A stretch of DNA of 64,000 nt from Bacillota bacterium (GCA_023409735.1 JAEYRB010000023.1:1482-65481); one strand, 5' to 3'; numbered from the stretch's first letter, positions 37,810 to 60,917 are shown. Numbers and translations are program-made. Notes: generated from the letters alone by a model not told the origin.

Positions 37810-37826
37810 TGTGTACACCTAACCTT

Positions 37827-38969: not shown

Positions 38970-38987
38970 AAAGACCCTCCATTTCTT

Positions 38988-39833
38988 TTACAGAAGCTTT
39001 CTACTTCTGCAAAAATCCATGATGTCAGCTACGACTTCCTCTTTATGCTCCTGATCCAGCGCATGGCTGGCATCCTCGTATAGAATGAGTTTTGATTTTG
39101 GCACCGCGCGCACAGAACGGAGCAGATTCTCCGGAAGACTGATAGGGTCATGGATGCCACCAAGGAGCAAAGTAGGAACTTTGATCTGGTTTAAAACAGT
39201 AACAAGTTCATTTTCTGTTTTTATGTTCGCAAACGGTTTCTTAGGATTTAATCGCGCTTCCTCAAGACTCAAGCCTCGCCACCAGGACATCTGTTCCTTA
39301 TGTAGAGCAACGGCACGCGCCCATTCCTCTTCAGTTATATAATCTGGCCGATGTGGCTGTGATCTTCTCTCTATTTCGTCACAGTATGCCTTCCAGGTTT
39401 CATTACTCTGTGCGGCACGAATAGTACGCATTCTTGCATCCCCGGTCTCTTCACCATCCTTGCTGTGCGGACCTGCTACAATACCGAAAAAGCCACGCAA
39501 ACGCTCTGGATGATTAACACACAGATGCCAGCCAATACCCGCTCCATGCGACATTCCTGTATAAAAGAATTGGTCAATTCCCATAGCGTCAGCAAAATCA
39601 CATGTATCCTGTGCCCATACATCATACCAGGTATTACCCAGATCCTGCGTTACATGAGTAGACTGACCATAACCACGGATCGTAATATTAAAGACATGAA
39701 AGCTTTCTTCGGCAAGGTCAATTGTCCAGTTTTGAATTTTTGAATGATTTTGCTGGCAACAGAGCAAATATTGCTGTCCTTTGCCATATTCCTCATACTC
39801 CAGCTGAATATTTCCTAATTTTTTAATTAACAT
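38988..39833 (-). CDS. Alpha/beta hydrolase
   Basis: GxSxG elbow GMSHG and C-terminal His context ASHALDQEH. GGAGG lies 8 nt before ATG 39833; the track ORF extends to 39884. Confidence 0.75.
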   Translation of the reverse strand: MLIKKLGNIQLEYEEYGKGQQYLLCCQQNHSKIQNWTIDLAEESFHVFNITIRGYGQSTHVTQDLGNTWYDVWAQDTCDFADAMGIDQFFYTGMSHGAGIGWHLCVNHPERLRGFFGIVAGPHSKDGEETGDARMRTIRAAQSNETWKAYCDEIERRSQPHRPDYITEEEWARAVALHKEQMSWWRGLSLEEARLNPKKPFANIKTENELVTVLNQIKVPTLLLGGIHDPISLPENLLRSVRAVPKSKLILYEDASHALDQEHKEEVVADIMDFCRSRKLL

Positions 39834-39890
39834 TTCATTTACCTCCAGCAGATCGGCTATCATATAGTAGCACGTATCTGCCAATTTTAT

Positions 39891-41459
39891 TTATATACGC
39901 TTTGCCCTGATATAGTTAGCATGAATACAGCTTCGCCAGTGTTCATTTACGACATCTGTAGGGCTGCAGCGCAAATTATGTGCAATACCATTTTCCTGTT
40001 CAAGAATCAGAGAATTTGTGCATGTAAAATCCAGCGTTAAAATATTGCTGCCCATCCATGCATCGCTTCTAAACCAAAGTTCATATCTATACGGCGAGGC
40101 CCAGCGTCCTGCCGCATAACCCTCTTTTGTGTCATATCCCACATTTGTGTCAAGCCGAATACCATGATCCATTATTCTGTGTTCCGAGGGAGACTGCATT
40201 TCCATAAACCTTAAAGGAATATGACATGAGACCCATTTCCCATTTGGCGGCAGCAAAAGTACTTGCCTTTCATGCTCCGTCCAAAACTCCAGCCGTGTTT
40301 CCCGACTCAAAGGCGAAAAAGAAAGCTTGTTAATCCCGAAAAATGTTTCCGGTAGTACAAAATGCCCACCAAAATCCATGGCCGGTTGCGCCTCATCTCG
40401 GCCACACAAGTTCAGGTGTTCACTCTTTTCCAGCAGTCGAGCATAACTTTTGGGCGATTCGGGTATAGGATAAGCAAACATGTTACTGCTCAAGTACTTC
40501 CAAAGTAATTTCATAATTCGATCGGAACGTGGTTCATTTCCATGGATTGCTACGACAATATTCTGCTCAGGCAGTACAATACCAAGCTGGCCTGCGCCTC
40601 CATTCAGTGTAAAGCCGCCAAAATGATTGCGCCAGATTTGAAATCCGTATCCCGATCCCGGCTGAGTAGGAAATTCAGGTATGTCAATCATCTCTTTGCA
40701 GTTGGAGGTAGGAACCTGCCATGCACAAGCAGCCTTCACAATATCTGCCTGCAAAAGCTGTTTTCCATTCCATTGCCCGGCTTTTGCAAAAAATAATGAT
40801 ATTTTCAAAAAGTCAACTGTCCTTAGACAGAAAGTGGGCAGATCATCTCGTGCCCCTCTGCTCTCAATCCGCACTTCTGAAATTCCAAGTGGTTCAAATA
40901 ATCTTGGAGCGAGATACGAAGACACCCTATGCCCGGTCTTTCTAAATATAATCTCCGCAAGAATGTCAGGTATTCCGTTATCATAGAAAAAATGAGTACC
41001 CGGTTTATCAACAAATGGCTCCCTAAAGAATGCAGCAATAGGATCATCAGCTGCATGCATTTTGACATAGCTATCCTCCCTATGTCCAGCGTGCATCGTT
41101 AAGAGATTATATACTGTCATTCCTGCTGCAGCTTTATCTGCATATTCTGCTGCCTCAGGCAAAAGCTCTAATACATGATCTTGCAGAGAAAAAAGATCCT
41201 CCTCAACAGCAAACAGAACCGCTGCTGCAACAAGAGTCTTTCCTGCAGAACAAATTCGCTGTAGCTTATCAAGTCCAAACGGTTTCCAGAAGCAATTCAG
41301 CAGAAGCTTCTCATTTCGCAGAAGCAAAAGACTATGCAGCTCCAGATGCTCTCGCTCTACAGCATCGAGAAACGCTAGCAATGCTTCGGAACGGATACCT
41401 TCAGATTCCGGCGTTGCAGTTCTCCATTCAATGGCCACGTGCATACTTACCCCTTTCAT
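39891..41459 (-). CDS. Beta-lactamase-fold serine hydrolase (class C / D-aminopeptidase-like) with a roughly 170-aa C-terminal extension
   Basis: SxxK = SAGK and YxN = YDN. 522 aa. ATG 41459 overlaps the ATPase stop (ATGA); an alternative ATG at 41444 has AAAGGGG upstream. Confidence 0.8.
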   Translation of the reverse strand: MKGVSMHVAIEWRTATPESEGIRSEALLAFLDAVEREHLELHSLLLLRNEKLLLNCFWKPFGLDKLQRICSAGKTLVAAAVLFAVEEDLFSLQDHVLELLPEAAEYADKAAAGMTVYNLLTMHAGHREDSYVKMHAADDPIAAFFREPFVDKPGTHFFYDNGIPDILAEIIFRKTGHRVSSYLAPRLFEPLGISEVRIESRGARDDLPTFCLRTVDFLKISLFFAKAGQWNGKQLLQADIVKAACAWQVPTSNCKEMIDIPEFPTQPGSGYGFQIWRNHFGGFTLNGGAGQLGIVLPEQNIVVAIHGNEPRSDRIMKLLWKYLSSNMFAYPIPESPKSYARLLEKSEHLNLCGRDEAQPAMDFGGHFVLPETFFGINKLSFSPLSRETRLEFWTEHERQVLLLPPNGKWVSCHIPLRFMEMQSPSEHRIMDHGIRLDTNVGYDTKEGYAAGRWASPYRYELWFRSDAWMGSNILTLDFTCTNSLILEQENGIAHNLRCSPTDVVNEHWRSCIHANYIRAKRI

Positions 41460-43471
41460 TTACTTGCCTGAAAACAGGCCACAAAATGTCCTGGCTGTAC
41501 CTCCTTCAGTGAAGGAATTGCATTGCAGCAGGCATCTGTTGCATAATCACAGCGATTATTAAACGGGCAACCTGCAGGCCGCTTAATAATACTTGGAACC
41601 TCGCCTTTAAGAACTACCTTTTTACTGTTGTTTTCAGCTTCAGGATCAGGCAGGGGAACTGCACACATCAGTGACTGTGTATATGGATGCAGGGGATTAT
41701 TATAAAGATCTTCACTAGATGTCAGCTCCACTATCATCCCAAGGTACATAACAGCTACACGATGACTAATATGCTTTACTACAGACAGATCATGTGCCAC
41801 AAATAGATACGACAGATTTAACTCATTTTGTAGATCCTCCAGCAAATTTATAATCTGTGCCTGAATTGAAACATCCAGCGCCGAAATTGGCTCATCACAG
41901 ATAATAATTTCAGGTTTGCAGGCTAATGCACGAGCAATACCGATACGCTGTCTTTGTCCTCCTGAAAACTCATGTGCTACACGCTCACGCATGGACGGCT
42001 CCAAACCAACCATACGAAATAACTCATCCACACGTCGGTCATATTCCGCATTGCTTTTAACAAGGCCATAGGGATAAAGAGGCTCTCCAACCAGGCTGCC
42101 GGCAGTTTTTCTTGGATCCAGTGAACTGTACGGGTCCTGAAATATCATCTGAATTCTGCGCCGTTCTCTACGAAACTTGTGTTCAGGTATAGAGAGGATT
42201 TCCTGTCCATCCAGATAAACACTGCCCTTTGCCTCATCTAGCAGCTTTAACACCGCTTTAGCAGTTGTTGTTTTTCCACATCCCGACTCTCCTACTAGTC
42301 CCAGTGTTTCACGTTTATGCAGCTGAAAGTTGACATTCTGCAATACATTCAGCGAGCCAACCTTCTTCATGAACAGGCCCTTTTTAATTGGGAAGGATAC
42401 GCAGATATTTTCTGCCTTCATTACCACCTGCTCTAAAGGAATAGCTTTTTGCTTTTTCTCTGCAGCCGTCCATGCACGCTCCTGTGTGTCAAGCTCATTT
42501 GCATTAAGAAAGCATGCGACAAAATGACCGGTGCTAATTTCCCTCAGGGTCGGTGTGCTGCCTTTCTCGCACTGATTACAAGCATACTTGCATCTATCAC
42601 GGAACTGACATCCCGGCTTTCGGTCAGAAGGAGAAGGCGGAGTGCCTTCAATAGGCGTCAAACGGTCACTTTCGACATCCAGCCTGGGGATTGCCTTTAA
42701 CAGTCCCCTTGTATAGGGATGTGATGGTGATTTAAAAATTTCCAAAGTCGTGCCTGATTCAACAATATTTCCGGCATACATAACATAGATACGCTGAGCG
42801 TATTTAGCGACTATCCCGAGATTATGAGTAATCATAACCAGCGCAGAATGATTCTTTCTTGACAGAGACTTCAGCAGATCGAGGATTTGCGCCTGAGTCG
42901 TCACATCCAGCGCGGTTGTTGGCTCATCAGCCACTATCATATCCGGATTGCCAGCTATGGCAATTGCTATCATAATTCTCTGGCGCATACCTCCGGAAAA
43001 CTGATGAGGATAATCGTCGAGTCTGTTTGCTGCGTCAGGAATTCCAACCTGCTCAAGCAGCTCTGCAGCCCTTTTCCTCGCTTCTTGCTTTGAAGCCTTA
43101 CAGTGGAGCACTATTGACTCCATCAGTTGATAGCCCACTGTTTTTACGGGATTCAGGGACGTCATCGGCTCTTGAAAAATCATACCGATTCGACCGCCGC
43201 GCACACTGCGCATATATGCACTTTTAGCTTTATGGGTAAGAAGATCTTCCCCTTCCAGCAGTACCTGTCCACTTTCGATTTTTCCGGGTGGTGTAGGGAT
43301 CAGCTGCAGTGCGGCCAGCTGAGTCTGGCTCTTCCCTGAACCGCTTTCCCCAACAATACCGATAATCTCACCGCTATCCACATATAAAGATACGTGATCC
43401 ACTGCACGTGTTAATCCATCAGTATTTTTATAGGTTACAGATAAATCTTTTATTTCCCAAAAATGTTCCAT
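41456..43471 (-). CDS. Fused double ATP-binding subunit of a peptide-type (DppD/DppF-like) ABC importer
   Basis: Two Walker A motifs (GESGSGKS, GESGCGKT), two signatures (FSGGMRQR, FSGGQRQR), and two C-terminal oligopeptide-type Cys-rich tails. The start is MEHFWEIKD at 43471, after the permease stop. Confidence 0.9.
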   Translation of the reverse strand: MEHFWEIKDLSVTYKNTDGLTRAVDHVSLYVDSGEIIGIVGESGSGKSQTQLAALQLIPTPPGKIESGQVLLEGEDLLTHKAKSAYMRSVRGGRIGMIFQEPMTSLNPVKTVGYQLMESIVLHCKASKQEARKRAAELLEQVGIPDAANRLDDYPHQFSGGMRQRIMIAIAIAGNPDMIVADEPTTALDVTTQAQILDLLKSLSRKNHSALVMITHNLGIVAKYAQRIYVMYAGNIVESGTTLEIFKSPSHPYTRGLLKAIPRLDVESDRLTPIEGTPPSPSDRKPGCQFRDRCKYACNQCEKGSTPTLREISTGHFVACFLNANELDTQERAWTAAEKKQKAIPLEQVVMKAENICVSFPIKKGLFMKKVGSLNVLQNVNFQLHKRETLGLVGESGCGKTTTAKAVLKLLDEAKGSVYLDGQEILSIPEHKFRRERRRIQMIFQDPYSSLDPRKTAGSLVGEPLYPYGLVKSNAEYDRRVDELFRMVGLEPSMRERVAHEFSGGQRQRIGIARALACKPEIIICDEPISALDVSIQAQIINLLEDLQNELNLSYLFVAHDLSVVKHISHRVAVMYLGMIVELTSSEDLYNNPLHPYTQSLMCAVPLPDPEAENNSKKVVLKGEVPSIIKRPAGCPFNNRCDYATDACCNAIPSLKEVQPGHFVACFQASK

Positions 43472-43481
43472 ATAATATCTC

Positions 43482-44339
43482 CTATAACGTTCCTCTAAGT
43501 CGCGGATCGATTGCATCACGCAGACCGTCACCAAGGATATTGAAGCCCAGAACCAGAAGCATGATGCACAGTCCTGGAGAAAGCGCATACACTGGATTTA
43601 TTAACATCATTGTATAGGATTCGCTTACCATTCCTCCCCAGCTAGCGGTAGGTGCCGACACACCAAGGCCAAGAAAATTAAGACTTGACTCGCATAAAAT
43701 TGTTGTGCCGATATTAGCAGTTAAAACTACCAGTACAGGAGAGATACAGTTTGGCAGCAAATGCAGCCATATTTTTCTTTTGTTGCTTATTCCAAGTACC
43801 TTTTCAGCTGTCATAAAATCTGAGTTGCGAATTTGCAAGACCTGTGCCGACATGATTCTCGCATATGTAGGCACAGTCGCCAGTCCGAGAACAATCATCA
43901 AGCCCAGAATAGATCCTGTTTTGAACATCATACTCAATGCCATAGCCAGCATAATGTTAGGAATAGACATCAGAGCATCGATTATACGGGATAAAACAGA
44001 GTTAATCACCCCACCGTAAAATCCGCAGACAAGGCCGATTGTAACACCTATTACAGCTGCAATTATCACTGAAGCAAAACCAATTAAAAGCGAAGTACGT
44101 GCACCAAACATTAATCGGGTCAAAATGTCACGTCCTAGCTTATCTGTTCCCAGCAGGTGCTCCGCGGAAGGTGACTTTAACGTTGTTTTAATGCTTGTAA
44201 GGTATGGATCGTAAGGAGACAATATAGGGGCAAAAATTGCCGCAAGAATAAATAACATAACAAGAATAGCGGCAAATACCACCAGTTTCCTACTGAATAA
44301 CGTTTTAATTGTATATGCGAATCTGGATTGATGTTTCAT
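43482..44339 (-). CDS. ABC importer permease (DppC/OppC-like)
   Basis: 285 aa and 6 TM, with an EAA-loop region and the C-terminal DAIDPRLR motif. Confidence 0.9.
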   Translation of the reverse strand: MKHQSRFAYTIKTLFSRKLVVFAAILVMLFILAAIFAPILSPYDPYLTSIKTTLKSPSAEHLLGTDKLGRDILTRLMFGARTSLLIGFASVIIAAVIGVTIGLVCGFYGGVINSVLSRIIDALMSIPNIMLAMALSMMFKTGSILGLMIVLGLATVPTYARIMSAQVLQIRNSDFMTAEKVLGISNKRKIWLHLLPNCISPVLVVLTANIGTTILCESSLNFLGLGVSAPTASWGGMVSESYTMMLINPVYALSPGLCIMLLVLGFNILGDGLRDAIDPRLRGTL

Positions 44340-44351
44340 ACCATTCCCTCC

Positions 44352-45296
44352 TTACTGAATCCGAATTCTAGGATCAAGATATCCGTAGCAGATATCAACG
44401 ATAAGATTAGACACCACAACCACAATAGCGATAATCATAACACAGGCTTGTATGACCGGCAGATCTCTTGCCAGAATACTTGCAACAAGCAAAGAGCCCA
44501 TGCCTGTTATAGAAAATACTGTTTCAATTGTCACAGCTCCGGAAACAATATTACGCAGGCTCATTCCAATAATCGTAATAACCGGAATAATAGCATTTTT
44601 CATAGCATGTCTCATGATTACCCGGCTTTCCTTCAAACCTTTAGAACGTGCTGTACGTATATAATCCTGACGGACTACCTCCAGCATACCTGATCGCATT
44701 TGTCTTGTCATACCGGCAATTGCTCCTACACTTAGGCAGGCGACCGGCATAATTGTCTGCTTAATGCTCATTGCCAATCCATCTGATGGAAACGAAAAAC
44801 CAAAGGACGGAAGCCATTCAAGCTTCATCGAGAATATATACATACCAACAACTGCCAGCCAGAAGCCAGGTACAACAGAGCCAAGATTAGCCAGGACAGT
44901 CAGAATATTGTCAATCAGTTTCCCACGGTTAGTGCCGCACAATGTTCCGAACAAAATACCCAATAATATACTTATTATTAGAGAAATGACTCCAAGATAC
45001 ATAGTAATTGGAAGCCGCTGTTTCAAAAGCTCCTGTACAGGTATCGTATAGCGGTAGGATTCCCCGAAATCACCCAGAGCAAACTTGCATACCCAGTGCC
45101 AGTATCGGACTGAAATGGGCTTATCCAATTCCATTAATTCATACTGTGCCTGATACTGCTCCATCGTAATATCAGGGCCCAAAATAGCGTAAACAGGATC
45201 GCCCGGTATCAGATACATCATAAAATAGGAAAACAGGGAGATCAAGATGATTACGACCAGTGCTTGTATAAGTCGCTTTACAATAAACCGGCTCAT
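44352..45296 (-). CDS. ABC importer permease (DppB/OppB-like)
   Basis: MSRFIVKRLIQALVVI N-terminus, QDYIRTARSKGL EAA motif, and C-terminal YLDPRIR. Confidence 0.9.
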   Translation of the reverse strand: MSRFIVKRLIQALVVIILISLFSYFMMYLIPGDPVYAILGPDITMEQYQAQYELMELDKPISVRYWHWVCKFALGDFGESYRYTIPVQELLKQRLPITMYLGVISLIISILLGILFGTLCGTNRGKLIDNILTVLANLGSVVPGFWLAVVGMYIFSMKLEWLPSFGFSFPSDGLAMSIKQTIMPVACLSVGAIAGMTRQMRSGMLEVVRQDYIRTARSKGLKESRVIMRHAMKNAIIPVITIIGMSLRNIVSGAVTIETVFSITGMGSLLVASILARDLPVIQACVMIIAIVVVVSNLIVDICYGYLDPRIRIQ

Positions 45297-45333
45297 GACA
45301 TGCTCCTTTCTTTCAGGAGAATATTTAAATATA

Positions 45334-45361
45334 GCAGGGGGACGGTCGGTATTCCCCCTGC
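45334..45361 (-). promoter_or_regulatory. Intercistronic GC-rich stem-loop between the SBP and permease genes
   Basis: GCAGGGGGA-10 nt-TCCCCCTGC (9-bp stem) with no strong T-run. It is a typical mRNA-stabilising or partial-termination element after binding-protein genes. Confidence 0.4.
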
Positions 45362-45384
45362 ATTAAATTTCTGAATTTTAAATA

Positions 45385-47031
45385 TTATTTTGTAAAGTGT
45401 GCTGTTTCCGGTGTCCAGATAATGTAATTGATCTGATAGATACCATGATCTGCAACATTGCCATTAGTGAAGATTGCGCTACTACTGGTCCACATAGGAA
45501 GCAACTGGCAGTAGTCGTCAATGACCATCTTGGAAAGCTGTTGGCTATAATTCTTCTTTTCATCAAATGTCTTGCAGCTCATTGCATTCTGCAGTGTTTC
45601 AACGATATCATCGTAGTGATTAACTTGGTTGACCCAACGGACTCCATCGGGTAAGAATGTACGGTTGTAATAAGTACTCAGATCAACTTCCGCACGACCG
45701 GCACTGAGAACCATACCTGTGTATGCTTCACCCTTAACACCAGATAAATCATCAAGGCGGGCCTGCTCTATAGCTTCAATGGATGCTTTTATTCCAACCT
45801 CAGCCAAGTAATCCTGAACCAGGACACAAATTGATTCAGATTCGCTGCTGTTAGTCATATAATATATTACCATATCAAAACCATCCGGGTAACCGGCCTT
45901 TTTTAAATAATCCTTTGCTGCTTGCGGATCATACGGATAACCCTTTGTTTCAGGATTACTTGACCATACGTTATTGGGACCCCATTGAATAGTGCGGTCA
46001 TATATAGCACCAGTCTGTGAAGAGCAGTACTCCCAGATTGCATCCATATCAATAGCAGAAGCTATTGCACGGCGAGCATCAACATTTCCCATAGGGCCTT
46101 TATCCTGGCAGCTAAACCAGAATATTGATGTAGCAGCGCCACTTACAAGAGGCTTGGTTTCGGACGTAAATCCTTTAGATTTCAGGGTCATACTTGTGTC
46201 ACTTGAGCAATCAATGATCGCATCAACTTCTCCTGCCATAAATGCTGAAGACTGTGTAGCTGCATCCTTTATGAAATGGAATTCAACGCCATCCAAATAA
46301 GGCATTCCATCAATCCAGTAATCTTTATTGGCTTCAAATACAACCTTCTGATCAGTTACCCAGGATGCAAACTTGAATGGTCCTGTACCAACCGGATTAC
46401 GGTCAGCAGCGTCGGTTCCATTAGCTTCAGCATAATCCTTAGAAATTATAGTACCGGCAGTATACAAGCAAGCAGTAGCTATAGAATTGGACCAGTTTTT
46501 AAGATGCACAACAATTGTATGTTCATCAATTATTTCATATTTATCAACACCGGTCAGTTCCATATTGCCGCATTCAGTCCACTTTTCCCAGTTCCATACA
46601 ACAGCTTCGGCATTGAAATCAGAACCGTCATGGAACTTTATACCTTCGCGCAGATGAACTGTTAAAGTCATTGCGTCAGGATCTTCTTCATATGCTGTGC
46701 ACAGCCAAGGTTGCAAAGTACCATCCTCATTATAGCGGCATAGATGCTCTAAACATGTATCAGCGATTAAGGAGGCCTGGAAGGTCAAGCTCAACTGCGG
46801 ATAACCAATGTGAAGAACGTCTGTACCGAGCCCAATTTTAAAGACACCGCCATATTTCGCCGCATCCCCATCTGTTGAAGGCTCTGCTTCCGTAGTTTGG
46901 GTTTGTTCAGTCTGTGTTTTATCCTGAGTTTCCGTCTCTTTGGTTGTTTCCTGCTTGCTTGTACATGCTGCAAGAGAGCATGCCATTACAAGTGCTAGGA
47001 ACAATGCAATCCACTTCTTTGTAGGTTTCAT
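45385..47031 (-). CDS. Family-5 (peptide/nickel/opine type) ABC substrate-binding lipoprotein
   Basis: Lipobox LVMACSLAAC, then a T/E/Q-rich linker. 548 aa. GGGGAGG RBS. Confidence 0.9.
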   Translation of the reverse strand: MKPTKKWIALFLALVMACSLAACTSKQETTKETETQDKTQTEQTQTTEAEPSTDGDAAKYGGVFKIGLGTDVLHIGYPQLSLTFQASLIADTCLEHLCRYNEDGTLQPWLCTAYEEDPDAMTLTVHLREGIKFHDGSDFNAEAVVWNWEKWTECGNMELTGVDKYEIIDEHTIVVHLKNWSNSIATACLYTAGTIISKDYAEANGTDAADRNPVGTGPFKFASWVTDQKVVFEANKDYWIDGMPYLDGVEFHFIKDAATQSSAFMAGEVDAIIDCSSDTSMTLKSKGFTSETKPLVSGAATSIFWFSCQDKGPMGNVDARRAIASAIDMDAIWEYCSSQTGAIYDRTIQWGPNNVWSSNPETKGYPYDPQAAKDYLKKAGYPDGFDMVIYYMTNSSESESICVLVQDYLAEVGIKASIEAIEQARLDDLSGVKGEAYTGMVLSAGRAEVDLSTYYNRTFLPDGVRWVNQVNHYDDIVETLQNAMSCKTFDEKKNYSQQLSKMVIDDYCQLLPMWTSSSAIFTNGNVADHGIYQINYIIWTPETAHFTK

Positions 47032-47310: not shown

Positions 47311-48435
47311 TTAAAAGACCTTTTCATGTAGATATTTTTCTATATAATCCACTACATAAAAAGAAAACTGCAACTGTTCACGTATTGAATGATCTTTCAG
47401 GGAAACACCCAAAAGCTCCTGCAGCTTCTCAAGCTTGTTAAGCATTGTATTGCGATGTATAAATAATTCTCTTGCTGTCTGGCTCATATTGCAATCATTT
47501 TCCAAAAATCTCCGCAAGACATGTGCAAAATTGGTATCATGTTTTCTATCATGCCGGAGGACATTTCCCAGAGCCGGGTGGCATAGATAGACCAGATCGT
47601 TCACCTTCAGTTCGCTTTTATATGCATTAGCACAGAATTCCGCTATATGATAATTGACATAATGCTCATAAAGAAATACTCTCTTACCATCTACTTGATG
47701 AAGCGCAATGCCAAACCTCATGGCTGCCTTCGCTTGTTGGTATAATGCTTTTACAGCGATTAGCCGTACAGCGCTGTTGGAAACAGCTGCATAAGCGGAA
47801 TTACTGTTCAGATAATCGTTCAGTACCTTATCAGGCAATGTAGGTACTGTCTCGTTTTCCTTTAGAGAAAGAAGTACCACGATGTCACCTTTGTATGCAA
47901 AAACTGAGTTCTGTTGCAAGATATGTCGAAGCTTTAGTACTGCACTTTCCCAAGGAGTGTTTTCAGAGTTCCCAAAAAAAGAAACCATAATAAGGCAAAA
48001 CCGTTTTGATAGCTGCAGTCCTAGCCCACGCACCAACTCTGCAACATTTTCACCGACCTGAAGCTTGCCCTCAATCAAACGAACTATCAGGCTGCCATAT
48101 CCGGTGGATGAATGTTCCTTTTGCCGCAGCGTGTGCAAAGCGCGCTGCGCACTAGCTGAAATGAAATTTGTCTGTAGCGGAAAGCAGACGATATTACTTT
48201 CCTCAGGTATAACAATGCTCTCAGGTAAATTGCCGGAGCAGAAAGCACATAGGTGATTCCCATTTTCACAGGATAAAAACGTTTGTATTTCATCTTGCTT
48301 TAGTACATAAATATTTGCAGGAGATGGGTTTGTGTCTGAAGGCAGCACACAAGCTTCGTCAGAAATTTCATCCATTCTGATCTGGTAGTAACTTATATCA
48401 AGTTGCATTTGTTCCAGTAATTGTGTTAGCCTCAT
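47311..48435 (-). CDS. PucR/CdaR-family transcriptional regulator
   Basis: C-terminal HTH NMSQTARELFIHRNTMLNKLEKLQELLG. 374 aa. Confidence 0.8.
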   Translation of the reverse strand: MRLTQLLEQMQLDISYYQIRMDEISDEACVLPSDTNPSPANIYVLKQDEIQTFLSCENGNHLCAFCSGNLPESIVIPEESNIVCFPLQTNFISASAQRALHTLRQKEHSSTGYGSLIVRLIEGKLQVGENVAELVRGLGLQLSKRFCLIMVSFFGNSENTPWESAVLKLRHILQQNSVFAYKGDIVVLLSLKENETVPTLPDKVLNDYLNSNSAYAAVSNSAVRLIAVKALYQQAKAAMRFGIALHQVDGKRVFLYEHYVNYHIAEFCANAYKSELKVNDLVYLCHPALGNVLRHDRKHDTNFAHVLRRFLENDCNMSQTARELFIHRNTMLNKLEKLQELLGVSLKDHSIREQLQFSFYVVDYIEKYLHEKVF

Positions 48436-48628
48436 AAATTTTTCTCCTTTGATGCAACTTTCGTTTCATCTTGCTAAAGTCCAAATTTGTGTAAAGTATA
48501 CATGACAGCTCCAAAAAACGGGGCAGGATGCACCTTCTATATTATCTACTCCATAAGCTATAATAACAAACAATAGTCTGCTTATTCAACATAAATTAAT
48601 GTACTTAAATGGAAGGGATGATATTAAT

Positions 48629-49840
48629 ATGGGAAAAGGTCCGCTTACTGGATATAAAATTTTGGATTTGACACAATTCGAATCCGGCACAGTATGCACG
48701 GAAACTCTTGCCTGGCTAGGTGCAGAGGTTTGGAAAGTAGAACGGCCTGTCACAGGAGAATTGGGACGGCACTCTGTCGCCAAGCCCGGTGTGGATACCT
48801 ATGGTTTTTTGATCATGAACATGAACAAGAAATCCATAACATGTAATATGAAGCACCCTGAAGGACTGACGTTGATAAAGCGTCTTCTTGCCATAGCTGA
48901 TGTAGTCGTTGAAAATATGGGTCCCGGCTCCATGGAAAGGCTTGGACTTGACTATGATAGCTGCAAGGCAATTAACCCCCGCATTATCTACGCATCCATC
49001 AAGGGTTTTGCGAGGGATAGCGAATACTGTGATTATCCTGCATTTGATCCCATTGCGACACACACCGGTGGTTTTGTTGCTGCAACAGGTCTGCCCGATC
49101 AACCTATCAAGGCAGGTGTTAGTGTCGCTGATTCCGGTAGCGGTATTACCTGCGCCATGTCTATTATAGCAGCTCTTTTACAGAGGGAACGGGAAGGCAT
49201 CGGTCAACGGATTGATGTGGCTATGCAGGATTTCATAATAGGATTATCCCGCGCAGGATGGGAGCCCTATTATGACAACGGTAAACCACCGCGTAGAGTC
49301 GGAAACGGTATGCCGCTCGAAGACGTTGCTCCGTCCAATACCTACCCCTGCAAACCCTTTGGACCAAACGACTATGTACATATTTACTGTTCCAGGGCGC
49401 CCGGAAGCAAACATTTTTCAAATCTGTGCAAGGCCATTGGACGTGAAGATCTTTTAGAGGATCCACGTTTTGACACACCTCGTTCCCGGTTCGAATACCG
49501 TAATATCCTCGATTCAATTATTTCTGAATGGACAAGCCGTCATACAAAGAAGGAAGCTATGGCCATTATTGCCGGTGCAGATGTTCCTGCAGGCGCAATG
49601 CTGGATGTAGCCGATATTACAAATGATCCCGATTATCAAAAACGTGGTATGATTGTAGAAATTGATCACAAAGAGCTGGGCAAAGTTAAAGTACCTGGTT
49701 TTGCGCCGCGTATGAGCGAAAACCATATCGATTACACATGCTCCCCAATTCTAGGTGATAGCAATGATGAAATTTACAGAAAGCTGCTCGGACTATCTGA
49801 CAGTGAGATAACCAAGCTAAAAGCAGAGAAGATAATTTAG
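48629..49840 (+). CDS. Family III CoA-transferase (CaiB/BaiF/Frc-like)
   Basis: MGKGPLTGYKILDLTQFESGTVCTETLAWLGAEVWKVERP N-terminus and SVADSGSG around the catalytic Asp. About 403 aa from ATG 48629. Confidence 0.85.
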   Translation: MGKGPLTGYKILDLTQFESGTVCTETLAWLGAEVWKVERPVTGELGRHSVAKPGVDTYGFLIMNMNKKSITCNMKHPEGLTLIKRLLAIADVVVENMGPGSMERLGLDYDSCKAINPRIIYASIKGFARDSEYCDYPAFDPIATHTGGFVAATGLPDQPIKAGVSVADSGSGITCAMSIIAALLQREREGIGQRIDVAMQDFIIGLSRAGWEPYYDNGKPPRRVGNGMPLEDVAPSNTYPCKPFGPNDYVHIYCSRAPGSKHFSNLCKAIGREDLLEDPRFDTPRSRFEYRNILDSIISEWTSRHTKKEAMAIIAGADVPAGAMLDVADITNDPDYQKRGMIVEIDHKELGKVKVPGFAPRMSENHIDYTCSPILGDSNDEIYRKLLGLSDSEITKLKAEKII

Positions 49841-49846
49841 TATCAG

Positions 49847-49890
49847 AAATGCACATACAACAGCATTGCTATAGTATGTGCATTTTCATT
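49847..49890 (+). terminator. Intrinsic terminator after the CoA-transferase gene
   Basis: 11-bp perfect stem AAATGCACATA / TATGTGCATTT (49847-49857 and 49875-49885), followed by TTTTCATT. Confidence 0.6.
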
Positions 49891-49995
49891 AATATTCTGG
49901 GTTTTTCAACCTGCCATAAAATTTGTTAATAGCAGTTCCCATATTTTCCAGCTCAACTGGTGAGATATTTCCCCCACCCCTTTTAAGAAAGCACT

Positions 49996-51312
49996 TTATT
50001 TTTTTATCACACGTGTCTCAATGAAATCCTCCACAATTCCTGTCATAGAATCGTGATTCCATTTACGCGGATCCACCGGGTCCGCCTTAAATAGCAACAC
50101 AGGTATTCCTGCGTCCTCTAGCGTTTTTCGGATAAAGAATGACCCTTCTACTGCCTGCATGCAGTTTTCAGGAACCATATATACAACGCCATCAACACGA
50201 TTGTGGCGGGCTTCCTTTAAAAACCACTGTGAATTCCATGGTGGCATATGCAGAAAATCTTCCATTCCGATATATCTGGCAGCGAGGGCACGCAGCGGAT
50301 CTTGTTCTACATGGTAACGGCGATAAGCATCCGCACCCATTGCAAGATATATACTCCACATAAAGACCGCACCATATTTATCCTCAAAATTCTGATAGAA
50401 GCTGAAATCATGCCACAGGCCTCTCCCCAGCCACATTAGGCGATATTTCTCATTAGGAACCGCAACATCGCCCCGTTTCTGTTTTTCTGCGACCTCTTCA
50501 TACAACCGCCTTGCGTGATCTGCAGCCCAGCGTGTACCACGCTGCCACTGTGCCGGCATAACAGCGTTTATAGTATCCACCACAGTAACAGGAACAGGAC
50601 TGCTGCCAGCAATCAGGTCACGGATTTTACCATACCATGTTTCCTGCTCGTTAATGTTGTCCATGACTTCTTGCAGACGGTTAATGTCGAACATTTTCCC
50701 TGTCTTCATTTCAAGGAAGCGTATCAGTTCTCTTAATTCTTCAACGGCTGTGTCCAAACGATCAGTATCGTAAAGGCTTTCCCAGTCATAGGGAGCCAGT
50801 TCCCACCATTTCAGCGGAGTCTTTCTTGCAACGGTGTTTTCCATAGCATAGAAGTCCGCATTGTGTTTTTTTGCAAAAAGCTCAAAAATTTTCCCTTGAC
50901 AGTCACAAGTCAGACGCGTAATGGCAATTGTGGGATTCGGCAGCCCGCCCCATGGGCCAAGTGGATTGCCCTCAGCATCAAAACTGTGATCTTCGGGATC
51001 AAGACTTTCAGCAAAAGCTGTAGCACAGTAGCTGCAAAGATCATCTCTGTAACCAGCCTGTCTGAGTAAGCCAAAATACTTGGCGGTCATACGCTTTGCA
51101 CCGCAAATAGCCGCCCACCACTGGTTTACAACAAACGGAATGTCCATAGCCCGCAGAATCTCCATTGGAACATCGGCATTGAGATATCCAAAGTCTTCGC
51201 CTGCTTCCACTCTTGCCTTCAGACCCTGAAACCACTCCTTCTGATAAGCGCTGGCCTCGGCAGTGGCATGGAGCCTTTTCTTCGCTCCGGATTTTATCAC
51301 TTGTTCAGTCAT
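49996..51312 (-). CDS. 2-hydroxyacyl-CoA dehydratase / benzoyl-CoA reductase (HgdB/BcrB-BadE) family subunit
   Basis: 438 aa. The N-terminal region VPMEILRAMDIPFVVNQWW and Cys-containing DDLCSYC and LTCDCQGK are typical of this family. Confidence 0.8.
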   Translation of the reverse strand: MTEQVIKSGAKKRLHATAEASAYQKEWFQGLKARVEAGEDFGYLNADVPMEILRAMDIPFVVNQWWAAICGAKRMTAKYFGLLRQAGYRDDLCSYCATAFAESLDPEDHSFDAEGNPLGPWGGLPNPTIAITRLTCDCQGKIFELFAKKHNADFYAMENTVARKTPLKWWELAPYDWESLYDTDRLDTAVEELRELIRFLEMKTGKMFDINRLQEVMDNINEQETWYGKIRDLIAGSSPVPVTVVDTINAVMPAQWQRGTRWAADHARRLYEEVAEKQKRGDVAVPNEKYRLMWLGRGLWHDFSFYQNFEDKYGAVFMWSIYLAMGADAYRRYHVEQDPLRALAARYIGMEDFLHMPPWNSQWFLKEARHNRVDGVVYMVPENCMQAVEGSFFIRKTLEDAGIPVLLFKADPVDPRKWNHDSMTGIVEDFIETRVIKK

Positions 51313-51315
51313 GCC

Positions 51316-52476
51316 TCATTCCTCCTTCAATTCTTGAATAAACTGCTCAATGGCAGCATCTAAGCCTATATTGCTGCAAACAGGATACTGCATTTTAGAA
51401 AAAGCCATTGTCCTGATTCCGGTAGCCTCCAATGCAGCCTTCTGCGTTGGGTAATCCCAGCTTGCCGCATCCTCATAAATATTTGTATAGAAAATTACAG
51501 CCTGTGCTTTTGTAGCAATTGCCTCACTGCTAAGGGCCTCCACGCGCTGAGAGACAAATGCTTTCTTTGAACTGAACAACCGTAGCATATATCTGTCCAC
51601 AATACTACGTACCACAGGATAATCAGGATTGCAGTCCCTGTTATAGAACCGGTCTCCCCAATCATGATCTTCGCCCACGACTACTGCACCGGCATCTTCA
51701 ATCTTATCATACAGCTCTGTGCTTTCCTGCGAACTGCCGGTAACGAAAATACGAGGGCCTTTCAGAACAGGCCAACCTGCAGCCGCCCTCGTTATAGATC
51801 TCACCAGATTTGTATGCTTTTCCCTATCCATGAAAAACGCCGAGCCTATGATGACCAGCGCCTCGCTGCCGCTGATGCGGACCTCGGAGCCTCTGCGAAG
51901 AGCTGCCATCTCACGGAGAGCCTGGCGGTTTTGGTTGCATACATGTATAGCATTCATTATATCCTCATCCGAAATCATATGTCCGCACCACTCCTCCAAC
52001 TGCTCGCGGAACAATGCGACAACCTGTTCATTGCGATCCTGATGCATTCTGTTGCGCGTAAAAAGCCAATCAAGGAATATCAACGGCGGTAAATCCTCTA
52101 GATTGATCCGCACAATTTCACGAAGATACAAAAATACACGGATAAGTACATCAGTTGAATTTGAAATAGCAAGAAAGTCTGCCTGTTTTTTATATGTACC
52201 ATCAACGACTTTTTCAAATTGTTTCCGTACTACCGGATCAAAAGCAAACTCAAGATAGGTATCGGTTTTCCGCAGCTGCTTCTCCGGGTCAGCAAAAACC
52301 TGTAGAGGAAACATTCCCGCTGCTATAATCAGCTCATCCGGTACATCAAAGCCAAGTTTTGCAACGACCTTTTTACCCGCCGCCCGAGATGAAAGCGCAT
52401 CTCTTTCACGATTACAATAAATATCCATAAGCTGCGCAAATGCCGTAGCTTGCATGGCACATTCACGAATGCCCAT
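51316..52476 (-). CDS. 2-hydroxyacyl-CoA dehydratase family subunit (second component)
   Basis: 386 aa with VPDELIIAAGMFPLQVF. Its stop is 3 nt upstream of the partner subunit's start codon. GGAGG RBS. Confidence 0.75.
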   Translation of the reverse strand: MGIRECAMQATAFAQLMDIYCNRERDALSSRAAGKKVVAKLGFDVPDELIIAAGMFPLQVFADPEKQLRKTDTYLEFAFDPVVRKQFEKVVDGTYKKQADFLAISNSTDVLIRVFLYLREIVRINLEDLPPLIFLDWLFTRNRMHQDRNEQVVALFREQLEEWCGHMISDEDIMNAIHVCNQNRQALREMAALRRGSEVRISGSEALVIIGSAFFMDREKHTNLVRSITRAAAGWPVLKGPRIFVTGSSQESTELYDKIEDAGAVVVGEDHDWGDRFYNRDCNPDYPVVRSIVDRYMLRLFSSKKAFVSQRVEALSSEAIATKAQAVIFYTNIYEDAASWDYPTQKAALEATGIRTMAFSKMQYPVCSNIGLDAAIEQFIQELKEE

Positions 52477-55978: not shown

Positions 55979-57541
55979 TTATCTTCCAAGCTTGTATTCA
56001 ATTGAGTCGACCAATGCCCTCCAGCTTGCATCTATTATGTCGGTGGATACTCCAATGGTAGTCCAGACCTCGCTGCCATCAGTGGATTCTATAAGGACCC
56101 TTACCTTTGCCGCTGTAGCTGATGTTGAATCAAGCACCCTAACCTTGTAGTCGGTCAGCTTCATTTCCGAAATTATAGGATAGAAACGAGCAAGCGCCTT
56201 TCTAAGGGCATTATCCAGAGCATTGACCGGTCCATCGCCTTCAGCCGCAGTTATTTCCTCCTCATTTCCCACCTTTACCTTAATGAGTGCCGACGAATTC
56301 TTCTCGCTGGAGGATATAGTGGGCTCATTAACGATAACCTTGAAATCCTTGAGCTCAAAATATGGGTGATACTTACCCAGCACCTTCTTAATAATAAGCT
56401 CGAAGGAGCTTTCAGCGCCTTCATACTGATAGCCCTCGTGTTCCATTTCTTTAAGTTTTTCAAGGACCCTCATTGTTTCAGTAGAATCCTTGGTAACAGA
56501 TGGATCAATTTTGTTAATAATATTAAGAACAGCGCTTCTTCCAGCAACCTCAGACATGAGAAAAATACGCCCGTTACCCACTGCCTTAGGATCAACCATC
56601 TCATATGCAGAACTATTCTTCACAACCGCATCAGCATGCATCCCGGCCTTGTGCGCAAACGCTGCCCGCCCTACATATGGCGCCCTTTCATCAAAAACCA
56701 CATTTGATATTTCACTTATGGATCTGGCAACAGAGGTAATATGCTGCATACTCATTTCCGGAATACAACTGTAACCCATATGCAGCTGCAAATTTGGTAT
56801 GATAGTACAAAGGTTGGCATTACCACATCTTTCACCAAGGCCGTTTATCGTTCCCTGTACCTGTACAGCTCCGGCCTGTACAGCCATAATAGTACCCGCA
56901 ACAGCCATTCCATTGTCATTATGACAGTGGATCCCGATTGGTATGTCAATTAATTCTACGACCTCTTTTGTTATATTATATATATCCAATGGCATAGAGC
57001 TTCCCTTTGTATCACAAAGACATATACTGTCAGCCCCGGCTTGCCTTGCCGCTTCCAAAGTCTCCATGGCATATTCTCTGTTTTCTCTGAACCCATCAAA
57101 GAAATGCTCTGCATCATAAACAACTTCTCTTCCCATCTTCTTAAAGTAGCTGATCGTATCAGCGATCATGCTGATATTTTCATTCAAGGTGGTCTTGAGA
57201 ATATCTATGACCTGAAAATCCCACGACTTGCCGAATATAACCACAGCCTCGGTGCCAGCGGCCAGAAGAGAACGAACATTAGCATCCTCCTCGACGGGTA
57301 TACCAACTCTTCTGGTACTTCCGAAGGCAATGATTTTTGAGGTTTGCAGCTTAAGCTTTCCTACTCTTTCAAAAAACTCCAGTTCCTTTGGATTTGATGT
57401 TGGATTTCCTGCTTCAATGTATGAAATTCCAAGAGCATCAAGCTTTTTAACAACCTTAAGCTTATCCTCAACAGTGTATGAAATGCCCTGTGCCTGCGCT
57501 CCGTCTCTGAGAGTGGAATCCAATACAATTATCTTTTTCAT
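55979..57541 (-). CDS. cimA: Citramalate synthase (CimA-type member of the LeuA/HCS family)
   Basis: N-terminus VLDSTLRDGAQAQGISYTVEDKLKVVKKLDALGISYIEAGNPTSNPKELEFF (the GAQ variant typical of CimA). C-terminal LeuA-dimer regulatory domain. ATGA overlap with leuA. Confidence 0.8.
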   Translation of the reverse strand: MKKIIVLDSTLRDGAQAQGISYTVEDKLKVVKKLDALGISYIEAGNPTSNPKELEFFERVGKLKLQTSKIIAFGSTRRVGIPVEEDANVRSLLAAGTEAVVIFGKSWDFQVIDILKTTLNENISMIADTISYFKKMGREVVYDAEHFFDGFRENREYAMETLEAARQAGADSICLCDTKGSSMPLDIYNITKEVVELIDIPIGIHCHNDNGMAVAGTIMAVQAGAVQVQGTINGLGERCGNANLCTIIPNLQLHMGYSCIPEMSMQHITSVARSISEISNVVFDERAPYVGRAAFAHKAGMHADAVVKNSSAYEMVDPKAVGNGRIFLMSEVAGRSAVLNIINKIDPSVTKDSTETMRVLEKLKEMEHEGYQYEGAESSFELIIKKVLGKYHPYFELKDFKVIVNEPTISSSEKNSSALIKVKVGNEEEITAAEGDGPVNALDNALRKALARFYPIISEMKLTDYKVRVLDSTSATAAKVRVLIESTDGSEVWTTIGVSTDIIDASWRALVDSIEYKLGR

Positions 57542-59082
57542 ACTGACTCCTTCCCGTTGGAGATTCCCTTTCCACAGTCGCTGATAACTCTATTGATAGC
57601 ATTTACATAAGCTTTTATACTGGCTTCGATTACGTCTGTGCTTACGCCTCTTCCAACAAATATCCGGTTATCCTTCATAACCCGGACAGTTGCTTCGCCA
57701 AGGGCATCCGCTCCCTCTGTAACACCCTTTAGACTGTAATCCTGAAGCTCCACTTCAAAGCCAACTGTCCTTTCAACTGCCTTGAATGCTGCATTTATCG
57801 GGCCGTCGCCTGTGGCAGCTTCAGTAAGAAGCTCTCCATCCTTGTACATGCTTACCGCAGCTGTTGCAATAAGTTTGTTTCCACTGTTGATCTGATAACT
57901 TTCCAGCTTATATGCCTCACAGATCTCTGCAACCTTTTCCTCCACTAAGGCCTCAATATCCCTGTCAAGAACGACCTTTTTCTTATCTGCCAGTGCCTTG
58001 AACTTCTCAAAGGCCTTAGCTACTTCATCTGGCGACAGATTGTAGCCCATTTCCTGTAACCGTTCATCAAAGGCATGCTTGCCGGAGAGCTTTCCGAGCA
58101 TCATCCTGTTTTGTGAAAGGCCTATTGATTCAGGTGTCATTATTTCATAGGTCGATTTTTCATTCATTACGCCATGCTGGTGTATACCTGACTCGTGTGC
58201 AAAGGCATTTGCCCCCACCACTGCTTTGTTAGGCTGGACCTTAATTCCGGTGAGGCTGCTGATTAGCTTTGAGGTTCGGTATATCTGTTTTGTGTCAATA
58301 TTATGGACTATATCTCCATAATAATCCCTTCTGGTATTGATGCCCATAATTATTTCTTCTACAGATGCATTGCCGGCTCTTTCACCAAGACCATTTATCG
58401 TACATTCTATCTGTGTGGCACCATTTCGCATTGCAGCAAGAGAATTTGCCACGGCAAGGCCGAGGTCATTATGACAGTGAACGCTGATATCTACCTTTTC
58501 GATACCCGGAACATTCTCCCTGATACCCTTTATTAGCTGACCGAATTCATCGGGAGATGAATAGCCCACTGTATCCGGAATATTGACAACAGTAGCTCCT
58601 GCCTTAATTACCTCCTCAATGATCCTATAAAGAAATTCTATCCTGGTCCTGCTGGCATCCTCGGCTGAAAACTCTACATCAGAGCAGTATTTTTTTGCGT
58701 ACCTGACCATAGCCGCTGCCCGTTCAAAAACCTCGTCCTCAGTCATCTTCAGCTTATATTTCATATGAATATCCGATGTGGCAATAAAGGTGTGTATTCG
58801 TGGAGCCTCTGCATTACACACAGCATCCCATGCCTTATCTATATCGATTTGAGTGGCTCTGCTGAGACTTGCGACAGTAACACCCTTTACATTTTCAGCT
58901 ATAGTCTTAACTGCAAGATAATCTCCCTGAGAGGCTATTGCAAAGCCTGCTTCAATTACATCAACTCCAAGCCGCGACAACTGCCTTGCAATCTCAAGCT
59001 TCTCCTGTATATTTAAGCTGACGCCGGGCGTCTGCTCCCCATCCCTTAAAGTAGTATCAAATATTTTTATTCTTGTAGCCAT
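57538..59082 (-). CDS. leuA: 2-isopropylmalate synthase
   Basis: IFDTTLRDGEQTPGVSL, HCHNDLGLAVANSLAA, and a C-terminal regulatory domain. The start is ATG 59082 or 59088, after GGGAGG. Confidence 0.9.
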   Translation of the reverse strand: MATRIKIFDTTLRDGEQTPGVSLNIQEKLEIARQLSRLGVDVIEAGFAIASQGDYLAVKTIAENVKGVTVASLSRATQIDIDKAWDAVCNAEAPRIHTFIATSDIHMKYKLKMTEDEVFERAAAMVRYAKKYCSDVEFSAEDASRTRIEFLYRIIEEVIKAGATVVNIPDTVGYSSPDEFGQLIKGIRENVPGIEKVDISVHCHNDLGLAVANSLAAMRNGATQIECTINGLGERAGNASVEEIIMGINTRRDYYGDIVHNIDTKQIYRTSKLISSLTGIKVQPNKAVVGANAFAHESGIHQHGVMNEKSTYEIMTPESIGLSQNRMMLGKLSGKHAFDERLQEMGYNLSPDEVAKAFEKFKALADKKKVVLDRDIEALVEEKVAEICEAYKLESYQINSGNKLIATAAVSMYKDGELLTEAATGDGPINAAFKAVERTVGFEVELQDYSLKGVTEGADALGEATVRVMKDNRIFVGRGVSTDVIEASIKAYVNAINRVISDCGKGISNGKESV

Positions 59083-59403
59083 ATACATCAAACCTCCCTG
59101 AACCTCATTGCACACAGCGCTTAATAAAACCCATTGATTATGTGATCGTGCAGCTTCACACTTGCTTTTTATGCCCTAACCTATTCGACATACAACGACC
59201 TGTCCCGACATACTAATCCACTCTTATTCGCCTTAATAAATCTTGTACTCTAAACAGATTCAATCTTTATTCTTGACCTAAATTAACCTACCATAACGTT
59301 TTTCAACATAATAACTTACTTTATCTTCTTTATTCTGCTTGGTGCTTTTACCACTTCATTTACAACAATCACCAGGCATACTATCTACCGCTGATCCTGC
59401 ACT

Positions 59404-60917
<1,514 letters not shown>

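Follow-up and report, generated by a model that had tools for sequence, protein, structure and literature searches.

A locus of four protein-coding genes was analysed in a 64,000-nt stretch of a Bacillota bacterium genome (GCA_023409735.1 JAEYRB010000023.1:1482-65481), referred to below as the window. The genes encode a PucR-type regulator, a family-III CoA-transferase and the large (alpha) and small (beta) subunits of a protein with HGD-D domains (Table 1). All four open reading frames (ORFs) were found at the coordinates given in an initial annotation of the window. The identities proposed there (PucR regulator, CoA-transferase and two adjacent HgdAB-like genes) were confirmed by Pfam, the matches of the regulator, the transferase and the HGD-D pair being far beyond chance. 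The layout described in that annotation also held. Regulator and transferase genes diverge from a 193-nt spacer, the transferase and alpha genes converge on a 155-nt spacer, and the alpha and beta genes are 3 nt apart. The convergent spacer holds a hairpin that was first spotted by eye and then confirmed by folding (-18.3 kcal/mol, z = -4.15; 0 of 200 shuffles equally stable). A scan of this spacer for a terminator consensus gave no match; the hairpin is probably a terminator. The mechanical ORF of the transferase begins at 48599, and the start at 48629 gives the length of its homologues.

Table 1. Genes and features of the locus and of the neighbouring import/hydrolase operon.
Feature	Position	Strand	Length	Evidence and remarks
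PucR-type transcriptional regulator	47311-48435	-	374 aa	Pfam GGDEF_2, 31 bits; C-terminal HTH_30, 62 bits
Family-III CoA-transferase	48629-49840	+	403 aa	Pfam CoA_transf_3, 320 bits, E = 2e-95
Inverted repeat, probable terminator	49849-49883	.		10-bp arms ATGCACATAC/GTATGTGCAT; spacer between transferase and alpha genes
HGD-D alpha-like (large) subunit	49996-51312	-	438 aa	Pfam HGD-D (PF06050), 171 bits
HGD-D beta-like (small) subunit	51316-52476	-	386 aa	Pfam HGD-D (PF06050), 154 bits
Family-5 solute-binding protein, Opp/Dpp-type ATP-binding cassette (ABC) importer	45385-47031	-		Pfam; first gene of the operon; cluster c16 adjoins the cassette in 7 loci
Two ABC permeases	44352-45296, 43482-44339	-		Pfam
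Fused double ABC ATPase	41456 to ~43480/43588	-		Pfam
Beta-lactamase-fold serine hydrolase, esterase/D-peptidase type	39891-41459	-	522 aa	Pfam
Alpha/beta-hydrolase, S33/S15-like	38988-39884	-	298 aa	Pfam; neighbour cluster c18
PGA_cap/CapA-family protein, MslH-related	37827-38969	-	380 aa	Pfam, 145 bits
URO-D/MtaA-like protein	36715-37818	-	367 aa	weak Pfam URO-D match
Type-B carboxylesterase	34964-36568	-	534 aa	Pfam COesterase, 221 bits; last gene of the operon

The beta, alpha and transferase genes form a cassette, which we call the BAT module. More than 1,300 relatives of alpha were detectable, and the best 120 of them are 76-100% identical. One genome per species was scanned, which gave 68 loci. 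Their hosts are Lachnospiraceae, Oscillospiraceae, Blautia, Murimonas intestini, Clostridium sp. chh4-2 and MCC353, and Geosporobacter ferrireducens, with distant copies in Chloroflexi and Citricoccus. The three genes are directly adjacent on one strand in the order beta>alpha>transferase in about 65 of the 68 species loci, mainly from gut and rumen Clostridia, and in all six distant contexts sampled. Diverged forms of the cassette occur in Actinobacteria, Chloroflexi and aerobic Sphingomonadales. Homologous modules were found in the strict aerobes Citricoccus, Croceicoccus, Novosphingobium and Rhizobium, again with CapA, hydrolase and CoA-transferase genes; those of Croceicoccus marinus and Novosphingobium are located on megaplasmids. 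Relative to the canonical gene order, the transferase is inverted in the window and in an identical 6.5 kb contig. Within the close family, alpha is 66-86%, the transferase 61-79% and beta 45-64% identical to its window counterpart, alpha being the most conserved of the three. Ratios of nonsynonymous to synonymous substitution (dN/dS) are 0.01-0.06 for alpha, 0.04-0.17 for beta and 0.02-0.05 for the transferase. Such values mean strong purifying selection on each of the genes, and the proteins are therefore functional.

ATP-driven radical chemistry at low potential has its textbook examples in the HGD-D enzymes, a group made up of 2-hydroxyacyl-CoA dehydratases, class I benzoyl-CoA reductases and double-cubane proteins. 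To our knowledge, every member characterised in the accessible literature depends on an 'archerase' activator. The activator injects an electron into the beta cluster, from which it passes to the alpha cluster, and beta stores an electron between turnovers (PMC11574389; PMC7317905). In BzdN the [8Fe-9S] ligands are Cys36/73/100/263/293/327 (PMC11971306), and HadB and HadC have three ligand cysteines apiece (PMC7317905). These positions were mapped through HMMER alignments to sequences from the PDB, a procedure that reproduced the published BzdN numbering. In the window beta subunit the six BzdN ligands correspond to G42, D80, T108 (with S107 adjacent), D272, S302 and E335, and HadC Cys72/99/325 to D80, T108 and E335. 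Cysteine was present at the six mapped positions in 0 of 66 related loci. A whole-library search with beta returned 153 clusters at 50% identity (E < 1e-30), of which 123 full-length representatives were aligned. Position 80 is Cys in three of them and position 335 in one, the latter being Asp or Glu in 121 of the 123. Beta is thus devoid of the three-Cys [4Fe-4S] site expected of a dehydratase accessory subunit, and neither the six-Cys [8Fe-9S] site nor the ATPase module of a class I benzoyl-CoA reductase was found.

The initial annotation had equated loss of the cluster cysteines with a non-catalytic relic. The beta cysteines are indeed lost, yet the dN/dS of this gene and the conserved operon mark a functional protein. 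That the locus is a decaying remnant of a dehydratase operon might also be supposed from the rearrangement that split the transferase from beta and alpha in the window genome. This idea is nevertheless hardly credible. The selection analysis contradicts it, with dN/dS of 0.01-0.17 for the three genes, and so do the intact ORFs, the 79 alpha positions that do not vary across 51 species and the conservation of the cassette across phyla. The alignment of cluster ligands proposed in the initial annotation had a divided outcome, as the ligands of alpha are kept and those of beta are all replaced.

Canonical dehydratase systems normally encode the activator in or beside the operon. The initial annotation had noted neither an activator ORF nor a 2-hydroxyacid dehydrogenase in the window, and both absences were upheld. 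Pfam scans of all plausible window ORFs of at least about 170 aa revealed no BcrAD_BadFG activator and no D-2-hydroxyacid dehydrogenase in the 64 kb, the sole 2-Hacid_dh_C match being a weak secondary one on IlvC. With E. coli YjiL, a genuine activator, as the tblastn query, the best hit across the window and all loci had E = 0.97. Six-frame scanning of 80 loci and contigs (1.37 Mb) for the two activator motifs GIDxGST and C[AS][AS]GTG found both together in the E. coli control and in none of the 80; the window was likewise negative in the motif scan. PF01869 is absent from the precomputed Pfam annotation of nine independent cassette contexts, and no activator gene is present on two annotated plasmids with a homologous module or on two contigs that were available as Pfam annotation, not as DNA. 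Altogether no linked activator was found in about 85 related places, strict aerobes included; in 28 of the loci the sequence extends for the full 10 kb to either side of the cassette. A cognate ATP-dependent activator gene was therefore found neither within the window nor in the related loci and contexts.

The alpha subunit presents a different picture. In BzdO the [4Fe-4S] ligands are Cys95/128/380, and Tyr97 and Tyr298 bind the thioester (PMC11971306). C93, C136 and C384 of alpha align with the ligand cysteines of HadB, MbdO and BzdO in the PDB alignments, and this three-Cys site is conserved in 64 of the 68 loci. Three further cysteines, C96, C70 and C138, are conserved as well. Tyr95 and Tyr322 are invariant among homologues; Tyr322 is the counterpart of BzdO Tyr298 in the alignment, and Tyr95 follows C93 at a distance of two residues, as Tyr97 follows Cys95 in BzdO. 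Alpha is probably the catalytic subunit.

The alpha site has been lost naturally. In Intestinimonas, a Clostridiales metagenome-assembled genome and Ca. Ventricola (loci L054, L055 and L058, gene at ~10001-11293), all gut anaerobes with alphas 72-73% identical to that of the window, C93N, C96D, C136G, C138A and C384D are replaced together while C70 is kept. In Citricoccus and in another actinobacterial-type locus alpha has none of C93/C96/C136/C138/C384. Because these relatives have lost its cysteines, the alpha cluster is, on comparative grounds, evolutionarily dispensable. C96 is probably part of the metal site, because it disappears along with the canonical ligands while C70 stays; the site would then be four-coordinate, whereas those of HadB and BzdO are open, with three Cys. 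A double-cubane site built from the six alpha cysteines was considered and rejected, since they are not spaced as in the published 7-Cys motif (PMC7317905) and five of them are lost jointly in some relatives with C70 retained.

These data bear on the two alternatives offered by the initial annotation, an activator-independent member of the family and one that borrows its activator. If the protein were a classical radical 2-hydroxyacyl-CoA dehydratase, its alpha cluster would be reduced by a shared ATP-dependent activator encoded elsewhere in the genome. Alignment of C93/C136/C384 with known ligands and the presence of the C-x-Y thioester motif would fit such an enzyme, and the genome was searched within the 64-kb window only. 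The FldABC and HadA-HadBC systems typically come with a family-III CoA-transferase, as BAT does. We nevertheless regard a borrowed activator as quite unlikely. The beta cluster, through which electrons are published to enter and in which they are stored, has no ligands left. No activator is linked in any of the ~85 places, close relatives are also without the alpha cysteines, homologues occur in strict aerobes and the window has no (R)-2-hydroxyacid dehydrogenase. An activator-free mechanism is favoured because beta is ligand-less and no lineage has a linked activator, and also because alpha ligands have repeatedly been lost under purifying selection and homologous modules occur in strict aerobes. 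Activator independence is accordingly the better supported of the two alternatives in that annotation.

The position of the pair among known HGD-D families was examined with curated models. NCBIfam scores of alpha were 79.4 for HadB (cut-off 750) and 66 for BzdO (cut-off 449); those of beta were 91.2 for HadC (cut-off 700) and 104 for BzdN (cut-off 454), and the double-cubane cluster protein (DCCP) model, which has a cut-off of 350, gave 52 and 92 bits. The BAT HGD-D pair is a separate clade, about equidistant from dehydratases, benzoyl-CoA reductases and double-cubane proteins. None of the solved structures in the PDB belongs to this clade, and full-text literature searches found no paper on an activator-free or Cys-less HGD-D clade or on such a gene combination.

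The pair resembles HadBC with HadA and HadI of Clostridioides difficile and FldABC with FldI of Clostridium sporogenes in its adjacent large and small HGD-D paralogues, which match HadB and HadC in the PDB, and in its family-III CoA-transferase. The three cluster-ligand Cys positions and the C-x-Y motif of the large subunit are further likenesses. It differs from them in that the small subunit lacks each of the HadC cysteines, that no HadI/FldI activator or 2-hydroxyacid dehydrogenase is linked in BAT, that alpha has the extra conserved Cys96 (CxxC) and that BAT homologues occur in aerobes; the window transferase is Frc/YfdW-like instead of HadA/FldA-like. The filing of the pair under HgdAB/FldBC/HadBC dehydratases in the initial annotation could not be sustained: the beta cluster is missing, the activator is missing and the scores remain far below the HadB and HadC cut-offs. 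In its mode of action the pair would be like an FldABC-type enzyme that converts acyl-CoAs in concert with a CoA-transferase. The pair should not be filed as a dehydratase because the missing beta cluster and activator are defining features.

With BzdNO and MbdNO (PDB 8S02 and 9G87) the pair shares other traits. BzdN is the best match of beta (104 bits in NCBIfam, 95 bits in the PDB), alpha aligns full-length to MbdO, and equivalents of BzdO Cys95/128/380, Tyr97 and Tyr298 are present in alpha. These traits could point to a reductase in which an acyl-CoA, unsaturated or aromatic, receives electrons or hydrogen atoms from a BzdO-like alpha cluster, and ferredoxin, flavodoxin or an electron-transfer flavoprotein (ETF) complex replaces the ATPase module as donor; some loci have neighbouring ETF and acyl-CoA dehydrogenase genes. 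We consider a reductase very unlikely. All six BzdN [8Fe-9S] ligands are replaced and there is no BzdPQ/BcrAD ATPase module, Cys-free alpha variants and aerobic homologues exist, the scores are far under the benzoyl-CoA reductase cut-offs, and BAT pairs with a CoA-transferase instead of a CoA ligase. DCCPs, exemplified by E. coli YjiM with YjiL, belong to the same superfamily, with weak to moderate similarity (52-92 bits). They differ from BAT in being homodimers that are always paired with an activator gene. The DCCP motif is CX19CX18-19CX29CX166-170CX32-34CX32C (PMC7317905); alpha and beta have six Cys each, none at this spacing, and no activator gene is adjacent.

The transferase has both the CoA_transf_3 fold and the catalytic aspartate of family III (CaiB/BaiF/Frc). 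Its best PDB matches are YfdW, Frc, SUGCT and YfdE. The catalytic Asp168 lies in 'VADSGSG', which aligns with 'LGDSNTG' of YfdW, and it is invariant in 51 of 51 homologues. Frc/YfdW and SUGCT are thus its nearest solved relatives. It differs from Frc in that NCBIfam Frc models score 316-328 bits, under their cut-offs of 442 and 504 (315.7 against 504.2 bits for the Frc equivalog), and in that its gene is fixed in an HGD-D operon. No oxalyl-CoA decarboxylase was identified in the window, where the sole thiamine pyrophosphate enzyme adjoins the acetolactate synthase small subunit and IlvC. The substrates of YfdW, Frc, SUGCT and YfdE are small dicarboxylates. The likeness suggests that the window transferase acts on a small acid, probably dicarboxylic or polar.

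The operon at 34964-47031, to which the initial annotation had linked the locus, contains importer and hydrolase genes (Table 1). The link was strengthened by the finding that the same transporter, PGA_cap, alpha/beta-hydrolase and URO-D-like genes stand beside the cassette in many species. Partner counts were obtained by clustering all ORFs of the 68 loci and annotating the representatives. PGA_cap/CapA-family proteins are the most frequent accessory partner (cluster c3, 24 loci, often in two copies; also in distant loci), followed by a PucR-type regulator divergent from beta (23 loci in the cluster table), Opp-type ABC importers (~18 loci) and CitMHS transporters (14 loci). URO-D/MtaA-like proteins and a pair of glycyl-radical enzymes were each counted in 9 loci, an AcrC-like acyl-CoA dehydrogenase in 8, a glycyl-radical activase in 7, an alpha/beta-hydrolase in 5 and an AcrA-type ETF subunit in a few (at least 3). 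The permease and ATPase clusters that recur beside the cassette are c6 (18 loci), c7 (16 loci) and c15 (7 loci). The alpha/beta-hydrolase cluster c18 is directly upstream of beta in four loci (L026, L028, L034 and L075), and analogous hydrolases occur in distant loci. The beta-lactamase-fold hydrolase was not recurrent in the neighbour analysis. The URO-D-like protein is 37% identical (E = 4e-77) to a cassette neighbour in Blautia that belongs to cluster c12, present in 9 loci.

Transporter, PGA_cap and hydrolase genes run colinear with BAT in four species, one of which is Murimonas intestini. One distant locus has PGA_cap, hydrolase and family-5 binding protein genes with two CoA-transferases. 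In others BAT is followed by an Opp importer or by a binding protein and two PGA_cap genes, TctABC precedes BAT, or a PGA_cap gene overlaps the beta gene. The sphingomonad plasmids carry genes for a CocE/NonD hydrolase, CapA, a TRAP transporter, CoA-transferases and PETase-like hydrolases. On Croceicoccus marinus plasmid pCME4A9I (L085, 5979-8962) and Novosphingobium sp. ES2-1 p1 (L086), the small subunit is shortened to a 'hypothetical protein' of 294 aa whose match to beta is confined to the C-terminal half (26% identity, E = 4e-9), and the adjacent CoA-transferase, of 700 aa, has an extra degenerate N-terminal transferase-like half. The Croceicoccus cluster adjoins genes for p-hydroxycinnamoyl-CoA hydratase/lyase, aldehyde dehydrogenase, acyl-CoA synthetase, DUF3237 and P450 proteins.

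The sole characterised PGA_cap enzyme, MslH, epimerises the alpha-carbon beside a free C-terminal carboxylate (PMC8179263); its substrate is the C-terminal Trp of a lasso peptide. The window protein is of the same Pfam family and matches the MslH structure (PDB 8GQ9 family, E = 2e-13, 53 bits), and the PGA_cap cluster representative matches the NCBIfam MslH model with 82 bits against a cut-off of 700. It differs in that the similarity is distant and there is no lasso-peptide context, and its role in the pathway is putative. Several substrates were considered for the pathway, namely D-Glu or gamma-glutamyl peptides, metal-chelating polycarboxylates, hydroxycinnamate or other esters, and tartrate or ascorbate products, all supported no further than by neighbourhood hints.

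The regulator has the C-terminal HTH_30 and the GGDEF-like middle domain of PucR/CdaR-type proteins, and homologues are divergent from beta in 23-30 related loci. Regulators beside the cassette in relatives have ~520-560 aa, and that of the window is ~150-190 aa shorter; Pfam detected no N-terminal PucR domain in its 374 aa. Ligand sensing by this shortened regulator may be altered or lost. For the fused ABC ATPase, the mechanical ORF (41456-43588, 710 aa) overlaps the upstream permease gene by 107 nt; its relatives have 673-674 aa, and the true start is probably near 43480.

Two other neighbourhoods were observed. In Blautia and Lachnospiraceae (L002-L004, L020, L024, L025 and L068), BAT stands in one string with genes for two ~800-aa glycyl-radical paralogues, a radical-SAM activase, a CitMHS/MatC-type transporter and a URO-D-like protein, which hints at a longer pathway joining a glycyl-radical step with a CoA-dependent step. 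The flanks of the Oscillospiraceae loci L008-L010 encode a BaiCD/BaiH-like Oxidored_FMN + Pyr_redox_2 protein, a 3-beta-hydroxysteroid dehydrogenase/epimerase-type dehydrogenase, FAD_binding_2 and DUF3237. This neighbourhood is of a steroid- or enoate-modifying type, and DUF3237 is also found beside the Croceicoccus module.

The explanation we favour, with a probability of roughly 0.55, is that the two HGD-D genes and the CoA-transferase form one functional unit, representing an uncharacterised HGD-D clade that works without ATP-driven electron injection. The mechanistic part of this explanation rests on sequence and synteny. The Opp-type importer and the esterase/peptidase-type hydrolases of the neighbouring operon would deliver a carboxylic acid, and the PGA_cap/MslH-like protein may set the configuration of its alpha-carbon. 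The transferase, which has the required fold and catalytic residue, would load the acid onto CoA through Asp168, the donor probably being the recycled product acyl-CoA, as with FldA and HadA. Alpha would then convert the acyl-CoA by acid-base or Lewis-acid chemistry, using its tyrosines and the C93/C96/C136/C384 site. The likeliest reaction would be hydration or dehydration (beta-elimination) to or from an enoyl-CoA, for which the proton is chemically accessible, and a ketyl-radical route seems unlikely. In at least 8 loci the cassette has AcrC-/AcrA-like acyl-CoA dehydrogenase/ETF genes at its side, as would fit an enoyl-CoA substrate or product. Beta, which has lost all cluster ligands, would act as a structural partner, and the associated PucR-type protein would be the local regulator.

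It is also conceivable that the alpha-beta pair performs other acyl-CoA chemistry, such as amine, ester or ether elimination, isomerisation, epimerisation or decarboxylation, or that it scaffolds or specifies the CoA-transferase. We judge this unlikely, though the least improbable of the alternatives. Cluster ligands have been lost repeatedly while the sequence stays constrained, the pair matches no curated family, and its obligate partners are the PGA_cap/MslH-like putative epimerase and esterases/peptidases, not redox enzymes. Every characterised HGD-D enzyme, however, uses its metal cluster to act on the acyl moiety of a CoA thioester (PMC11574389; PMC7317905; PMC11971306), and the acyl-CoA dehydrogenase/ETF neighbours fit an enoyl-CoA intermediate. 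The conservation of alpha, the highest among the three proteins with 70-86% identity, argues for catalysis and against a scaffold role.

Several observations weigh against the activator-free explanation. The window alpha retains all three canonical [4Fe-4S] ligand positions, and redox or radical chemistry at its cluster might still take place. Orphan BcrAD/BadFG-type genes are common in Clostridia. The window transferase lies outside the beta-alpha transcription unit. The hydration/dehydration assignment is drawn from family resemblance and from acyl-CoA dehydrogenase/ETF neighbours in a minority of loci. The substrate is, to judge from the gene neighbourhoods, not fixed across the clade, because the transporters vary (Opp, CitMHS, TctABC and TRAP). 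A distant lineage (L081, 497-4280) has a cysteine-rich beta, 29% identical to that of the window, with Cys at most BzdN-type ligand positions (aligned to window positions 42, 80, ~108 and 335). Its alpha is without C136, a CoA-transferase is present and no activator was found on the 10.5 kb contig; this lineage may be an evolutionary intermediate.

The activator-free explanation can be extended to a pan-bacterial, four-component CoA pathway of a PGA_cap/MslH-like epimerase, a family-III CoA-transferase and two HGD-D subunits, to which we give about even odds. Its core would be a formerly radical enzyme, descended from the ATP-activated dehydratase/reductase family, that now transforms an acyl-CoA in a non-radical way. 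It would have shed the activator and the Fe-S cluster of beta, and several lineages, strict aerobes among them, would have shed the alpha cluster too. Within the HGD-D superfamily this would be the first branch to be independent of an activator and, in part, of a metal cluster.

Three other gene sets were observed in the window. A complete bacterial pair for non-homologous end joining lies at 1811-5367 (-), where the gene for LigD (928 aa; phosphoesterase, ligase and primase-polymerase domains) overlaps that for Ku (257 aa). A 430-aa serpin (Pfam Serpin, 288 bits) is encoded at 11630-12922 (+). Two tandem overlapping LeuA/CimA-type synthase paralogues (HMGL-like + LeuA_dimer) at 55979-59115 (-) lie immediately downstream of ilvB (61118-62740), ilvN (60405-60917) and ilvC (59404-60408).

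If the activator-free explanation is true, a large conserved clade would show a radical enzyme scaffold re-used for ordinary chemistry. Its members come from Clostridia of the gut and rumen and from soil-dwelling and marine aerobes. Genome-based predictions of Stickland-type or aromatic reductive metabolism in microbiomes, which at present count each PF06050/IPR010327 protein as a radical dehydratase, would need correcting. The partnership with an MslH-like protein, esterases and importers would mark a catabolic pathway that is abundant in gut metagenomes.

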